Shown: one piece after another, positions 29,929 through 53,636 of the stretch
Position numbering within the stretch: position 1 is the first letter of the stretch
Layout: each line of letters begins with the position of its first letter
Source of the DNA: a virus
Taxonomy: Duplodnaviria > Heunggongvirae > Uroviricota > Caudoviricetes
Direction: 5' to 3' (one strand)
IMG/VR virus record: IMGVR_UViG_3300038393_003162
Coordinates: 148,407-212,406 of that record
DNA: 64,000 bases
Translations under genes and position numbers: made by a program
The notes under the pieces: generated by a model
Told to the model about the DNA's origin: nothing
Seen by the model: the letters and a program-made list of their open reading frames with translations, nothing else
Database searches by the model: none

Positions 29929-30339
29929 TCAGGATCGGAGATCGGAGACGACGGCGCGGACGACATCGCCAGCCACGCATCGCTTGCCTTGAGCGAAAGC
30001 TCTCATGGCAACGCCGATCGCGTGACCATCTTTGGGGGACGCCTTGACCTGCTGATCGATGCCGTTATCGACCAAGTATTGCTTCGTAGCAGCATAGTCC
30101 AAGACCGGAGGAACCAGTTCCTGCATGATCTCGGTTTCCCGTTCGCTGAAGGTGCCAGGATTGTTCTTGGCATCTAGCAGCAAGGTCCGGACCAGGGCGA
30201 TGACGATTTCATCGGGGACCGGCTGCTGAATAACCTGGTCCAGTTTGCCCTTAAGGAAGCGATACGCATTACGCGATTCGGCATCCTTGCTCTTGATGGC
30301 GTCGATCATCCGGCTTTGAATCGTGTTTTGCAGCGACAT
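29929..30339 (-). CDS. GatB/YqeY domain-containing protein
   Basis: MSL…AIKSKD N-terminus and C-terminal GVAMRAF…GK…AGDVV pattern resemble YqeY (136 aa). Confidence 0.5.
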   Translation of the reverse strand: MSLQNTIQSRMIDAIKSKDAESRNAYRFLKGKLDQVIQQPVPDEIVIALVRTLLLDAKNNPGTFSERETEIMQELVPPVLDYAATKQYLVDNGIDQQVKASPKDGHAIGVAMRAFAQGKRCVAGDVVRAVVSDLRS

Positions 30340-30345
30340 CTCTGG

Positions 30346-30738
30346 TTAATCCTTGTCTTCAGGAATGGTCTCGAAAACTACAAGTGCCCCGATTTTTACA
30401 GCATAATCAAGCATATGACGCAAAGTTATAATTAAATCCTCGAAATGCGACTTCTTAAGACCAACAGCGATCATCCTGAGGGTGTAAGCATAGACGCTAT
30501 TGGTTAAGCGAGTTCGCAATAACTCGGGCGTATACCGAACCGCCCCAGATGTGGCAAGTCCCAACATATCAGCGACCACCGATGCTACCGCTAGACTCAT
30601 GTGAATTTCAATGCAGTTAGGCGGCTCAGGTCTAGGGATAATCGTCTTTGGTCTGTGGTATTCCGGCACAAAGAGAGCGATTCTTTTCATTTTTCCCCTT
30701 CGTTTACGAGGATTTCGAATGCCCAATACGCGACACAA
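30346..30738 (-). CDS. hypothetical protein (130 aa)
   Basis: Intact ORF. Confidence 0.4.
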   Translation of the reverse strand: MCRVLGIRNPRKRRGKMKRIALFVPEYHRPKTIIPRPEPPNCIEIHMSLAVASVVADMLGLATSGAVRYTPELLRTRLTNSVYAYTLRMIAVGLKKSHFEDLIITLRHMLDYAVKIGALVVFETIPEDKD

Positions 30739-30846
30739 AATGCCAGGGACAAGAACCAGAAATATCCCTTGTCGTCCATCGCAAGCTTGGTCGCAGCGAT
30801 CGTGCTTGCGATGCCGATCGAAGACAGAACCGATACAGCCAACATC

Positions 30847-31038
30847 TTATTGTTTTTCATGAGTTGGTCCTTTCAGGGCAATCGGTTTCTTGTAACCGTA
30901 GGGACAGTGGAGACAGCCATTCGAACAACATCGCCCGCGTTTTAGCAAATAATGTTCAGTGAACACATACTTGCCTTCGGCATTAATGTAGTAATCAATG
31001 CCTTGAATTAACGCGGGCTTGTTGCTCTGGGTGGTCAT
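30847..31038 (-). CDS. small Cys-rich protein (CCSNGCLHCPYGY)
   Basis: 63 aa ORF with a C-terminal cysteine cluster. Confidence 0.35.
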   Translation of the reverse strand: MTTQSNKPALIQGIDYYINAEGKYVFTEHYLLKRGRCCSNGCLHCPYGYKKPIALKGPTHEKQ

Positions 31039-31041
31039 GTG

Positions 31042-31302
31042 TTACCGGGGCTTGAGTTCTGTGAAACCCAAAGTCTGTCCGTTCATGCCGTAGTGCTTGT
31101 AGAGGATCGTCCTCTTCGTGCCGTTGACATTCACATCGAACGTATACCACGAATTGCCCAACTCCTGGAAGTTGGTTGCGCCGTAAGGCAATTCGTAATA
31201 CGACACAGGGTTTTCGTTGCATCCCGTAGCTACGGTCAAAATCACCGTTGTCAGCGCCAACTTGATCCTAGAACCGATCATCGTACTCAATCTCAGGAAC
31301 AT
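31042..31302 (-). CDS. putative lipoprotein (86 aa)
   Basis: Lipobox-like LTVATGC after a hydrophobic N-terminus. Confidence 0.4.
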   Translation of the reverse strand: MFLRLSTMIGSRIKLALTTVILTVATGCNENPVSYYELPYGATNFQELGNSWYTFDVNVNGTKRTILYKHYGMNGQTLGFTELKPR

Positions 31303-31486
31303 AGTCGTTCACCGTCCTTTTCATCTGGTTAAGTTGACGATTCAGGCTTTCGATCTGCCGTTCGTTCCGCTGATTTCGATCCTTGAGGATTGCGTTCTGT
31401 TCCGTGAGGGTCTTGACCAAGGCGACCAGTTCATCACGATCCATCTTCTCCAGGTCCGTCATCTCGCACCTTTCCTTTTCTCGCAA
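31268..31486 (-). CDS. small coiled-coil protein (72 aa)
   Basis: Charged heptad-like sequence. Confidence 0.3.
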   Translation of the reverse strand: MREKERCEMTDLEKMDRDELVALVKTLTEQNAILKDRNQRNERQIESLNRQLNQMKRTVNDYVPEIEYDDRF

Positions 31487-31490
31487 AAAG

Positions 31491-51362: not shown

Positions 51363-51436
51363 TACTCCCAGCGAGATTTGAACTCGCGATTTCCTGATTG
51401 AGAATCAGGCGTCATAAGCCACTAGACCATGGGAGC
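51363..51436 (-). tRNA. tRNA-Glu (anticodon CUC)
   Basis: Acceptor GCTCCCA/TGGGAGT, anticodon arm CCTGA-TTCTCAA-TCAGG, T-arm GCGAG-TTCAAAT-CTCGC. Confidence 0.6.
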
Positions 51437-51485
51437 AACTTATGTTCTATATATTAGTCTTTTTCATCTGTTTTGTCAAGGTCAT

Positions 51486-51887
51486 TTAGATAATTTTTTT
51501 GAGGTCAACCTCGATCCAACTACACCAACCCAACCCCAGAAGTCCCCAAGCCCGTTCGTCATACCTACACTGCGGATGAAGCCCTTGAGCGTATAACTCG
51601 TTAAAAAGGAACTCACAAAAGGTTCCTGATCTCGGTTGAGCCCAACCACAATCGAAATCACATATCTGCTTCATGCCGAATCTATAAACCTCGGCGGTTG
51701 TCTTGCCGCTTGCCGCCGCTTGCTCAATCTTGTCGGGCAAAGCAGCAATCAAACGATCAACCTTGGCTCTGTAACGTTGTGCGATATAGATTCGCTGCTG
51801 GTCTAGCGATTCCTTCGCCTGGACTTGTTGCTCAAAGTATTTACGTCGTCCTCTAGCCAATGCTTCCTTCACGATCCAGTCTTTCAC
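51486..51887 (-). CDS. hypothetical protein (133 aa)
   Basis: Intact ORF. Confidence 0.4.
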   Translation of the reverse strand: MKDWIVKEALARGRRKYFEQQVQAKESLDQQRIYIAQRYRAKVDRLIAALPDKIEQAAASGKTTAEVYRFGMKQICDFDCGWAQPRSGTFCEFLFNELYAQGLHPQCRYDERAWGLLGLGWCSWIEVDLKKII

Positions 51888-51979
51888 GACATCCTCTATT
51901 TAACTTGTAAAAACACGGTTTAGGCAAGCAGACTTCAACCATGATTTGTTCGTCTCTTGATTAACTTATGTTCTATACT

Positions 51980-52252
51980 TTACTCTTTTTCATCAACTTT
52001 GTCAAGGTCATTTAGAAAGTTTTCCAAGCGACCTTTTAGCTGATAAACTTGGTTCTCGTTGAGCATGGAGTCCGCGTGAACAACACTGGCACCCATGAAG
52101 ATGTACTTCAAACCCTGCCAGAGACGCGACCAAAATGAAGGTCGATAAGGGATACAGGTTACAATGTACATGTAACCATATTCAGAATCAAACTCGACCC
52201 GAATCGCATGACCTGGATGCCCGCAGTCACATTCAAGCCAATAATAGGTCAT
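51980..52252 (-). CDS. hypothetical protein (90 aa)
   Basis: Intact ORF. Confidence 0.35.
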   Translation of the reverse strand: MTYYWLECDCGHPGHAIRVEFDSEYGYMYIVTCIPYRPSFWSRLWQGLKYIFMGASVVHADSMLNENQVYQLKGRLENFLNDLDKVDEKE

Positions 52253-52593
52253 CGATCCTCCTTGTTGTAGTTCATTTCTTTCGCCTGTCGGAATGATTTA
52301 GTTACAAAATTCCGCACATGAGAGTAAAGAACCTCGGGAATATCCCCCCTGATGGCTTCCAGCCTCTCCATGGAATCGTCTCGTCCAAGTTCCCATATCT
52401 TCGTGCGGAATCTCTTGTTTTCCTGGAGTTCACGGGTCTTATCGATGCTGGAAAGTCCTGCCAAGTATCTTCGGACGTCGTAGATGATCCTCATGGTCTT
52501 TGCAGTCACCTTGGGATCAGCTATCTCGCCCAGAATGCCCTCTATGGACTTATCCAGCGGCGAATTACCAATCATACCACGATAATCGACCAT
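52249..52593 (-). CDS. hypothetical protein (114 aa)
   Basis: ATGA-type overlap with the downstream gene. Confidence 0.4.
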   Translation of the reverse strand: MVDYRGMIGNSPLDKSIEGILGEIADPKVTAKTMRIIYDVRRYLAGLSSIDKTRELQENKRFRTKIWELGRDDSMERLEAIRGDIPEVLYSHVRNFVTKSFRQAKEMNYNKEDR

Positions 52594-52776
52594 TTAATCG
52601 ACCCATTCAACATCCAGCCACCAACCATGTGGCAGGGAATTTATGGAATGCTTCAGATACCTCTGCTTGACCTTGGACCGTTCCAGCCATCGGGTCTCGT
52701 TGCCAATCGTAGTTGGCAACAACGAAAATATGGTGATAACACGCACATCTCCATCTTTGGGTTTACGCCACCGCAT
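52594..52776 (-). CDS. small hypothetical protein (60 aa)
   Basis: Fills the gap between two genes; weak. Confidence 0.25.
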   Translation of the reverse strand: MRWRKPKDGDVRVITIFSLLPTTIGNETRWLERSKVKQRYLKHSINSLPHGWWLDVEWVD

Positions 52777-52787
52777 TTCATCGTCCT

Positions 52788-53636
52788 TTACTCGCTAAAC
52801 AACAGACTCATTCTAGCATCATGATCGTAACTTCGCAAGGGCTCCCAGGTCATTTCCCTCACCCGAGGTCGTGTCTCGCCCTCAAGCAACTGCCGCTTCA
52901 GATACGTGCCACGACGAAAGAACGCCGGGTAATCGTTCCAGTTCACGCCCTTCGCCATCAGCATGTCCATCTGGTCGGCGCGTCCCTGCCCGTGTAATTG
53001 CTTGTGACTGTAATAGTGCCTCGCAGCCATGCTCACCGAATTACGAGTCGCGTCGATCTCTCGCCACAACAACGCATTAGCCGCCTCGTCCAGGTTCGGC
53101 ACATTGAACGCCCGCGCGTCGAACGCCGCCATCCCAGAAACCTTGCCGTGATTGGTCCAGACGCCGCACGTACACGCAGCCGGGAAGTCCTGAGAGTCCG
53201 CATACGTCGCGTCCACGTAAGGACACGCCTCGTCATGGTCGCCAGCCTTCACCACCTTCTCGGGGATCAGGTCGGGGAGCAATCGATTGAAATACGCCCC
53301 GGTCAAGCCGCCGAGATGGCTCAGTATCTTGGACACCTTGGAGCCGTAGTAGAGTTGCTGGTCAACCTCGTCAGCGAACAAGACCAAGCTGATCTCGTCA
53401 CTTTGGGTGTAACCTATCCTCGCCCCGGTTTCAGCTACTAAAAGCCGAGTCGTCTCGATCATGAGACGGGACAGGCGTCCGTCATAGGGACGCCTCAAGC
53501 CCCTCGTCCACTTGCTAAAGCCTTTGCCGTCCATCCGACAGACAATAGGGAGTTGCGGCATGAAGACGCCGCCTGAAGGCGATAGATACTCAAAAAGCTT
53601 CATCCTATCGCCTAATGAATCCTTTTTGTTTGACAT
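52788..53636 (-). CDS. Thg1-like protein (tRNA-His guanylyltransferase / 3'-5' nucleotidyltransferase family)
   Basis: KLFEY, IVCRMDGKGFSKW and GYTQSDEISLVLF match the Thg1 motifs VVVRLDGRNFHRF and YGQSDEYSFVF. Confidence 0.7.
   Translation of the reverse strand: MSNKKDSLGDRMKLFEYLSPSGGVFMPQLPIVCRMDGKGFSKWTRGLRRPYDGRLSRLMIETTRLLVAETGARIGYTQSDEISLVLFADEVDQQLYYGSKVSKILSHLGGLTGAYFNRLLPDLIPEKVVKAGDHDEACPYVDATYADSQDFPAACTCGVWTNHGKVSGMAAFDARAFNVPNLDEAANALLWREIDATRNSVSMAARHYYSHKQLHGQGRADQMDMLMAKGVNWNDYPAFFRRGTYLKRQLLEGETRPRVREMTWEPLRSYDHDARMSLLFSE

Follow-up and report, generated by a model that had tools for sequence, protein, structure and literature searches.

The tRNA-like Y RNA YrlA (RF02553) is, by its published definition, a circularly permuted tRNA whose acceptor is closed and which has no free CCA end, and its biochemistry has been described (PMC4201824; also Chen et al. 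2014 and Wang et al. 2018). The Y RNAs Yrn1 and Yrn2 of Deinococcus radiodurans are co-transcribed with a tRNA. Phage Ro60 with Y RNAs is already known as well, since the Ro60 of Thermus phage phiLo and its Y-like RNAs form a complex with the host polynucleotide phosphorylase (PNPase), for which a function in defence evasion was proposed (PMC12135203; Nucleic Acids Research 2025, gkaf470), and RlaP, Thg1, PTH2, KptA and TROVE proteins of jumbo phages were interpreted as counter-measures to host RNase effectors (Iyer et al. 2021, Viruses 13:63, PMC7824862). Here we describe a Ro60 gene followed by an array of putative Y RNAs, several of which have the topology of a native tRNA, in 64,000 nt of a tailed virus (IMG/VR record IMGVR_UViG_3300038393_003162, positions 148,407 to 212,406; hereafter the window). 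An earlier note on this DNA had proposed a virus-encoded toolkit for tRNA maintenance and repair embedded in a tRNA array, and had overlooked both the Ro60 gene and the Y-RNA array.

Exact-protein look-ups placed the window on contigs of up to ~585 kb, and it is therefore derived from a huge phage. A megablast search with 14 kb of the window against 50,697 phage records gave no match, so there is no near-identical record among these. The predicted Ro60 protein matched the Pfam family vWA_Ro60 (61.5 bits, cut-off 27.7) as well as TROVE, and aligned over almost its full length with the Rsr structure 2NVO in the PDB (E-value 1.9e-17, residues 19–524). It is ~50% identical to Ro60 of Acidobacteria (Pyrinomonadaceae) and 42% identical to the TROVE protein of Myxococcus phage Mx1, which is the closest cultured relative as judged by Ro60, while the match to phiLo Ro60 was weak (E-value 1.7e-7, residues 243–408).

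An ORF-free region (ORF, open reading frame) of ~0.8 kb is located 0.4–1.3 kb downstream of the Ro60 gene on the same strand, and folds, in this order, into a leader hairpin and the elements A, X, B, C, D, E and F. Elements C and F are canonical Y-RNA hairpins, whose terminal helix bears CGAAUA in its 5′ strand and UCUUGUC in its 3′ strand and whose upper helix ends in UACAU (in hairpin C, the 5′ strand is CUCGAAUAU...GGUGUACAU and the 3′ strand UUCUUGUCGAG). Elements B, D and E are cloverleaves in which the acceptor has 7 bp, the D and T arms carry the nucleotides conserved in tRNAs, and a putative Ro60-binding module takes the place of the anticodon loop. The connectivity of this module is reversed in the cloverleaves, which display first the 3′-strand motif, then a capping loop and then the 5′-strand motif, but the invariant G·U of the upper helix and the CGAA, UUGUC and UACAU motifs are common to both topologies. 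Unit B thus has an open acceptor (GAACGGC/GCCGUUC), a D arm, a capped CUUGU...AAAUA...UACAU module and a T arm, while the module of unit E is capped by UCGGGG-CUU-CCCCGA; several of the caps are GNRA tetraloops, and the closed helix therefore looks intended. Unit A is a tRNA-like element without a D arm, consisting of a 6-bp acceptor, a capped Ro module, a V hairpin and a T arm, and has homologues in two related phages (L004 and L006). Hairpin X lacks the CGAA/UUGUC module, and represents a third conserved RNA type in the array.

The array was compared with those of related phages (L004/5, L006/7, L008 and L009) with Ro60 proteins 50–73% identical to that of the window, some of them on contigs of 609–640 kb. 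The gene-free gaps after Ro60 in L004, L006, L008 and L009 contained both RNA types, hairpin and cloverleaf. Each form is conserved in five loci of related huge phages. In an alignment of seven Y hairpins, 82% of the cells allowed pairing, compared to 33–49% in slid controls, and 11 pairs changed on both sides, which was reached by none of 500 shuffles. Helix 1 of these hairpins was 93.7% paired with five covarying pairs, with CGAAUA and UUGUC invariant or nearly so, and a covariance model made from the Y hairpins (R1) recovered two hairpins held out of training, in L004 and L006. The support was similar for eight cloverleaf units, with 90.7% of cells pairing (41–45% in slid controls), double changes in 24/31 pairs, and an acceptor that was 98% paired with six covarying pairs. 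The cloverleaf alignment (A7) had invariant T8, A9, G10 and A14 and a T loop of GTTCGA. The units do not pass as canonical tRNAs, as a capped module of 50–85 nt replaces the 7-nt loop on a 5-bp stem, and neither a default ARAGORN run nor Rfam at gathering score called the cloverleaf units. We infer that all six modules, two in hairpins and four in tRNA-like units, bind Ro60. The elements of the array are listed in Table 1, together with the other main features of the window.

Table 1. Positions of the Y-RNA array, the Ro60 gene and other features of the 64,000-nt window. R1, covariance model from Y hairpins; R2, cloverleaf model.
Feature	Coordinates	Strand	Basis or remark
Y-RNA array	36313..37099	-	leader hairpin, 4 tRNA-like units, 2 canonical Y hairpins, hairpin X
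Sigma-70-like promoter, TTGACT-17-TATATT	37127..37155	-	at the head of the Y-RNA array; 10/12 consensus matches only
Unit A, D-arm-less tRNA-like Y RNA	36934..37063	-	fold; R2 24 bits at 36966..37089
Hairpin X, conserved loop CCCGCCCUGG	36869..36933	-	fold; L004 counterpart ~8777..8843
Unit B, full cloverleaf Y RNA	36721..36859	-	covariation; R2 108 bits
Hairpin C, canonical Y-RNA hairpin	36654..36720	-	covariation; R1 61.8 bits
Unit D, full cloverleaf Y RNA	36513..36647	-	covariation; R2 115 bits
Unit E, full cloverleaf Y RNA	36381..36509	-	covariation; R2 94.5 bits
Hairpin F, canonical Y-RNA hairpin	36313..36378	-	covariation; R1 62.9 bits
Ro60/TROVE-vWA RNA-binding protein (Rsr orthologue), 540 aa	37570..39192	-	vWA_Ro60, TROVE, 2NVO
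Stand-alone vWA-domain protein	39226..39897	-	Pfam VWA 2.2e-5; directly upstream of Ro60
Pth2-type peptidyl-tRNA hydrolase	35742..36293	-	PF01981; ATG 36293 gives 183 aa
Thg1-like protein (bacterial TLP type), 3′-5′ nucleotidyltransferase family	52788..53636	-	Pfam PF04446, PHROG 4717
RlaP-family Pol-beta nucleotidyltransferase	22911..23936	-	PF10127, PHROG 388
455-aa protein, ~340-aa orphan N-terminal region and GatB/YqeY-type tail	42004..43371	-	PF02637
136-aa all-helical protein, possibly YqeY/GatB-tail-like	29929..30339	-	PHROG 1460; sub-threshold Pfam YqeY
tRNA gene array	40337..63822	-	24 ARAGORN tRNAs and 1 Rfam-only; runs past window end
tRNA-like RNA, 83 nt, 17-nt 'anticodon' loop AAAGGGCAnGUCCCCC	47070..47152	-	ARAGORN/Rfam, orthologues with stem covariation

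The phage units share with YrlA the position beside Ro60 on the same strand, the CGAA Ro-binding helix, the company of a plain hairpin Y RNA, and tRNA-like D and T arms with conserved tertiary-contact nucleotides (U8, A14, GG and the TΨC loop). They differ in that the acceptor of YrlA is closed into a stem-loop and its RNA ends are at the Ro helix, whereas the phage units have an open acceptor (7 bp plus discriminator base) and a capped Ro helix, and therefore fail the definition of YrlA; in addition, there are four tandem tRNA-like units in the phage (three full cloverleaves and one D-arm-less) compared to one YrlA. A search of the window with Rfam, both at gathering score and with E-values up to 10, returned only tRNAs and a sub-threshold YrlA fragment, this being a partial match of 17.5 bits (gathering score 69) across the junction of units D and E, which fits the 'dimeric tRNA' artefact of which Chen et al. 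(2014) warned. Parsing of the array in the manner of YrlA, with the T arm of one unit combined with the D arm of the following unit, was rejected, since the acceptor halves of neighbouring units are unable to pair and are separated by hairpins. A cellular counterpart was found on a 5.4 Mb Acidobacterial chromosome (L134), where a full-length YrlA (Rfam 71.2 bits, gathering score 69) is located just upstream of Ro60. Its 5′ strand GGCGAAU...CUACAUUGCAAA is followed by a T arm, a closed acceptor stem-loop, a D arm and the 3′ strand CUUGUCGCC, and then by a plain hairpin Y RNA that was detected with the phage-derived model. In sequence, the YrlA module is identical to that of the phage units, while in topology it is their converse. 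Twelve tRNA genes are present in the 5 kb upstream of this cellular Ro60/YrlA locus (L134 1-4100), and RtcB is encoded 5 kb upstream of Ro60 in a Pyrinomonadaceae metagenome-assembled genome (L133), and hence in cells, too, Ro60 is found near clusters of tRNA genes and genes for RNA repair. The phage Ro60 of phiLo is likewise accompanied by at least two adjacent CGAA stem-bulge-stem Y-like RNAs, a class which hairpins C and F fit, whereas no tRNA-like domain was reported for Yrl1 and Yrl2.

The distribution of the units was assessed in other viral Ro60 loci. A scan of viral contigs with a single protein query gave no Ro60 hits, while an alignment-based scan identified 80 viral Ro60 loci (76 unique) with 32–49% identity. 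Model R1 gave 45 hits in the 80 loci, every one on the Ro60 strand, and model R2 gave long hits of 60–76 bits in L208, L135/136, L209 and L203 (ordinary tRNAs scored ≤55 bits), which again fold into the design with an open acceptor and a capped module. Searching 17 of the viral loci with Rfam gave 109 tRNAs and no YrlA, and the tRNA model matched five long units. A degenerate DNA pattern for the permuted module was also tried on viral contigs, and its 120+ scattered single hits were judged to be due to chance. A tRNA gene was present within 3.5 kb of Ro60 in 45 of the 76 unique loci, with six or more in 20/76, whereas PTH2, RlaP and TLP (Thg1-like protein) genes were almost never found within this distance. 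Ro60 in a tRNA array is thus common among large phages, but the tight block with Pth2 is limited to the clade of the window and Mx1. The order of Ro60, gene-free gap, PTH2 and a GT2 glycosyltransferase is kept in the four related genomes, in some of which Thg1, the GatB-tail protein (see below) or KptA/Tpt1 is encoded close by, and the order in Mx1 is vWA...Ro60...tRNA-Pth; a vWA gene is also found near Ro60 in 6/76 viral loci. KptA/Tpt1 is an RNA 2′-phosphotransferase (PF01885) tied to tRNA ligation of the yeast type, and is encoded just upstream of Ro60 in L008 (8297-9202) and L009 (6210-6752), while the window showed no homologue. The Y-RNA array of L004 is separated from Ro60 by an inserted HNH gene.

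The tRNA topology of the Y RNAs, their tandem amplification and their recurrence in viral Ro60 loci appear to be new; no description of open-acceptor Y RNAs was found in the searchable literature, although there may be a prior mention. The fusion of a GatB tail to a clade-restricted N-terminal domain and a conserved 83-nt tRNA-like RNA with a 17-nt loop, both described below, also appear to be new.

All five ORFs named in the earlier note are present on the minus strand at the positions it gave. The Thg1-like protein of 282 aa was recognised by PF04446 (77.6 bits, cut-off 29.2) and PHROG 4717 (1.4e-67), and this assignment also held against solved structures, with the TLP of Bacillus thuringiensis (4KGK) as the best PDB match (3.8e-33). 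As eukaryotic Thg1 followed only at 2.5e-8, and as both catalytic motifs, RxDG ('ivcRMDGkgF') and SDE ('tqSDEISlv'), can be aligned with 4KGK, we consider it a TLP of the bacterial type. It differs from the bacterial TLPs in being phage-encoded and in a ~40-aa insertion at residues 129–168. Homologues of Thg1 are already annotated in 148 phage records. The activity expected of a TLP is template-dependent 3′-5′ repair of tRNA 5′ ends. In the phage tRNA-His, G-1 opposite C73 is part of the gene, which is the bacterial arrangement. Canonical post-transcriptional addition of G-1 by Thg1 is therefore not required, and a role of the phage TLP in 5′-end repair seems likelier than G-1 addition.

The peptidyl-tRNA hydrolase call was likewise borne out (PF01981, 96.1 bits, cut-off 23, profile positions 2–111 of 115). 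The mechanical ORF extends to a TTG at 36323 (35742..36323), but translation probably starts at the ATG at 36293, which is 20 nt past the last Y hairpin (F), has a ribosome-binding site (AGAAAGG), and is the start in the gene call of the identical contig L003.

The Pol-beta-type nucleotidyltransferase, which lies outside the range of the earlier note itself (29929-53636), had been suggested to be a CCA-adding or tRNA-repair enzyme. The protein belongs to the RNA 3′-end repair family RlaP (PF10127, 66.1 bits, cut-off 23; PHROG 388, 8e-45) and carries the Pol-beta GS...DLD motif ('IGSTAYGTSSDSSDLDIYG'); its start is likely to be Met41, at about position 23816. It is not a CCA-adding enzyme: a Pfam scan with E-values up to 0.1 gave only RlaP, a weak GatB_Yqey match and a weak DUF6492 match, and no CCA-adding enzyme was hit in the PDB. 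An MNT antitoxin was rejected too, with no such family among the hits and a protein of ~300 aa with RlaP architecture. Characterised RlaPs extend damaged RNA 3′ ends by 1–2 nucleoside monophosphates, and restore tRNAs short of a nucleotide after the action of RloC-type nucleases (PMC12776372). The phage protein resembles the RlaPs of P. fluorescens and P. aeruginosa and T4 NrdC.11 in family score and in the Pol-beta GS...DxD motif, but its gene lacks an adjoining RNA ligase gene and is flanked by genes for a trypsin-like protease and a GT8 glycosyltransferase, in a 25-kb cluster of glycosyltransferase and UDP-galactopyranose mutase genes 16 kb from the first tRNA. As no RNA ligase was seen next to RlaP or elsewhere in the 64 kb, its usual partner is missing locally.

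The GatB/YqeY C-terminus proposed for the 455-aa protein was supported by PF02637 (59.4 bits, cut-off 27, residues 342–454), with PDB and NCBIfam matches confined to the GatB tail (GatB positions ~366–478 of 481). A GatB amidotransferase was rejected, as the scores of 37–48 bits fell well short of the equivalog cut-offs of 314–680 and the catalytic body was unmatched. When 1.84 billion representatives were searched with a profile, relatives of the N-terminal ~340 residues turned up in this phage clade only, while 4399 profile hits to the protein were restricted to the GatB_Yqey tail region; an AlphaFold2 (AF2) model made from four sequences had a mean confidence (pLDDT) of 52, with an unreliable N-terminus. 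The protein is predicted to be a tRNA-binding tail on an orphan domain, and not an amidotransferase. The assignment of the 136-aa protein to YqeY fared less well: the ORF exists, but PF09424 scored only 15.9 bits (cut-off 27) over residues 5–36, and the sole significant support was PHROG 1460 'tRNA amidotransferase' (3.8e-6). Its AF2 model (pLDDT 77) had a best Foldseek E-value of 0.8 against the PDB, with no YqeY or GatB match among the PDB folds, hhalign with 16 GatB_Yqey proteins gave a probability of 3.5%, and BLASTP against the 455-aa protein gave nothing.

Within the window, ARAGORN identified 24 tRNA genes, all on the minus strand, 18 of which were confirmed with Rfam at gathering score together with an additional member (58237..58346), giving 24–25 canonical tRNAs; with introns allowed the total is 28, which includes Y-RNA units. 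The count of at least 30 tRNAs in the earlier note was thus too high for the window but is correct for the genome, as the same genome, recovered as locus L011, has seven further true tRNAs (Thr, Asn, Arg, His, Ala, Asp and Val) within 10 kb beyond position 64000. That almost none of the tRNAs encode CCA was also right, since the 3′ CCA is encoded by none. The enzymes had been described as embedded in this array, which holds for the Thg1-like and 455-aa genes, while Pth2 is only at its edge, and the 136-aa ORF (10 kb away) and RlaP are outside it. The window uses its codons unusually evenly, with each of the six Arg codons at 15–20% and ATA representing 15% of the Ile codons, and this usage is matched by phage tRNAs (Arg UCU, CCU, UCG and GCG; Ile UAU).

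Several genes in the array are aberrant. The 83-nt RNA listed in Table 1 has orthologues of 83–84 nt in L008 (888..971) and L009 (617..700), with normal acceptor, D and T arms and a 6-bp 'anticodon' stem closing the 17-nt loop; the stem covaries among the three phages, while the loop sequence is conserved. In the tRNA-like gene at 58237..58346 (-, 110–111 nt), two extra hairpins replace the anticodon arm, and that at 46027-46103 (-) has an anticodon loop of 8 nt. The class-II-like gene at 45928-46025 (-) has the anticodon CUA (amber) according to ARAGORN; recoding of TAG, at which this gene hints, was rejected because TAG, though rare, is used as a stop (in 4/51 ORFs sampled). Two weak full-length matches to the cloverleaf model at 50358-50431 (-, 23.4 bits) and 50519-50590 (-, 14.4 bits), where ARAGORN and Rfam gave no tRNA, may be degenerate tRNA-like remnants.

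The remaining genes of the window include a dense two-strand cluster at 1-25330, coding for glycosyltransferases of ~290 aa (GT2, GT8 and Glyco_transf_7C), methyltransferase-like proteins, a UDP-galactopyranose mutase (15116-16252) and a trypsin-like protease (21037-21903), which looks like a phage glycan-synthesis island apart from the tRNA theme. The minus strand carries three HNH endonuclease genes (27379-28005, 48664-49332 and 57294-58043), which likely encode homing endonucleases and two of which are flanked by tRNA genes. A class I S-adenosylmethionine-dependent methyltransferase (Methyltransf_11, 60312-60869, -), possibly acting on RNA, is also encoded between tRNA genes, and an SPFH/Band 7 protein with a holin-like N-terminus (31491-32507, -) near the Pth2 block.

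On balance, we think it probable that the region is an RNA-maintenance island around an array of >30 tRNA genes, in which the supply of tRNAs and their repair and recycling keep translation running under attack. The proposal of the earlier note, tRNA supply with repair and recycling enzymes, probably directed against tRNA-targeting defences, agrees with Iyer et al. 2021 (PMC7824862), and because the same families were already published for jumbo phages it is correct in outline, but not new. The window matches those jumbo-phage sets in families, in interpretation and in a ROT/TROVE protein with a tRNA-like RNA partner, but RlaP tracks RNA ligases there and none is visible here, while the Y-RNA array, the units with tRNA topology and the 455-aa GatB-tail fusion were not described there. 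In such an island, phage tRNAs would replace host tRNAs cleaved or depleted during infection, the TLP would rebuild damaged tRNA 5′ ends in a template-dependent manner (including G-1 opposite C73 of tRNA-His), and RlaP would put back nucleotides lost from broken 3′ ends before re-ligation by a ligase of the host or one encoded elsewhere in the phage genome. Pth2 would release tRNAs trapped as peptidyl-tRNA on stalled ribosomes, and Ro60 on phage Y RNAs would handle misfolded or broken RNAs, probably with a host 3′-5′ exonuclease such as PNPase, a partner made plausible by the phiLo assembly. The array may be transcribed from its own single promoter as a polycistronic Y-RNA precursor, and since the 7-bp acceptors are open, RNase P and 3′-end processing should excise the cloverleaves and thereby free the intervening hairpins. 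Every unit would present the same binding helix to Ro60, with the tRNA body and free acceptor end of the cloverleaves as a possible effector handle.

Several observations weigh against this interpretation. The description of the system as self-contained is not supported, as the search, which covered 64 kb of the ~585-kb genome, gave no RNA ligase, polynucleotide kinase/phosphatase, CCA enzyme or aminoacyl-tRNA synthetase. No family was assigned by Pfam, PHROG or NCBIfam to the ORFs at 25399-27342, 32562-34028, 34006-35061, 43427-44287, 44284-44970, 44963-45574 and 55261-56310, except for one weak PHROG of unknown function on 44963-45574, and these ORFs may hide a ligase or kinase. RlaP is located among sugar genes and away from its usual ligase partner, the G-1 encoded in tRNA-His makes its canonical addition by the TLP unnecessary, the YqeY identity of the 136-aa protein is tentative, and the N-terminus of the 455-aa protein is an orphan region. 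The rarity of PTH2, TLP and RlaP near Ro60 in the 76 other viral loci implies that the linkage of Ro60 to these enzymes is clade-specific, and it could be a historical accident. Finally, the evidence for the RNAs is wholly comparative.

Among the other explanations, an offensive device is possible, though unlikely. Ro60 and its Y RNAs would then recruit an exonuclease, such as the PNPase of the host, in order to degrade host RNAs or to disturb the maturation of CRISPR RNA, and their proximity to tRNA genes would reflect only shared processing by RNase P. The phiLo complex with host PNPase and its proposed role in defence evasion (PMC12135203) are in line with this, as is the presence of Ro60 in tRNA arrays of many unrelated phages without PTH2, TLP or RlaP nearby, but it leaves unexplained why the handle should be a complete tRNA body whose acceptor end is free, and why the co-transcription-like arrangement with Pth2 is conserved in the clade. 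It is somewhat less likely again that the tRNAs and enzymes only match phage codon usage and boost late translation, with no link to defence. The even codon usage and the tRNAs matching it fit this, and it is compatible with the island interpretation rather than exclusive of it; however, the targets of TLP, RlaP and Ro60 are RNA ends that are damaged or misfolded, and none of the three functions in decoding, and the relatives add another end-healing enzyme in KptA/Tpt1. We consider it improbable that there is no system at all, but a hypervariable tRNA region of a huge phage collecting unrelated accessory genes, HNH endonucleases and small ORFs. Three HNH genes and many orphan ORFs are indeed interspersed, RlaP and the 136-aa ORF are found among glycosyltransferases rather than in the array, and gene content around Ro60 differs between relatives, but the order of Ro60, Y RNAs, PTH2 and GT2 is kept from 73% down to 42% Ro60 identity, and random accretion would not give a set of families which all act on tRNA or RNA ends. 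Lastly, it is very improbable that the cloverleaf units are ordinary tRNA genes with introns of 50–66 nt, spliced to functional tRNAs unrelated to Ro60: ARAGORN with introns allowed (option -i) calls units B (as 'tRNA with a 66-nt intron') and D and those at L004 9024-9150, L006 8507-8633 and L008 11954-12082, and the Rfam tRNA model matches long units of other viral loci, but the 'anticodons' (gca, tta, tac) vary between orthologous units and come from the invariant UACAU, the 'intron' is the CGAA...UACAU/UUGUC module with the invariant G·U as in the hairpins and in Rfam-validated YrlA termini, the inserts are capped helices with covariation and far too short for group I introns, and the units are always beside Ro60 and on its strand.

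With its toolkit, one more uncultured clade of huge phages joins the published pattern. A further proposal is doubtful at present, namely that the cloverleaf units form a Y-RNA class of their own, which is favoured by phages and has the native topology of tRNA, and whose members receive CCA and are perhaps charged, thus presenting Ro60 on a tRNA body. If so, Ro60 and a host exonuclease could be steered to tRNA-handling enzymes and nucleases, and the units may function as decoys or adaptors against anticodon nucleases, or as scaffolds bringing broken tRNAs to TLP or RlaP. The effector for this tRNA handle could be the 455-aa protein, in which an orphan domain is joined to a tRNA-binding tail. 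The units also matter for annotation, since tRNA finders with an intron option and the Rfam tRNA model mis-call these RNAs as intron-containing tRNAs and the YrlA model misses them, which affects both phage tRNA counts and censuses of Y RNAs. Since 2014, the tRNA-like domain of bacterial Y RNAs has been without a known effector to read it; here a virus appears to have re-wired the same module with a free acceptor end and multiplied it beside enzymes of tRNA repair and recycling, which provides candidate partners and substrates.

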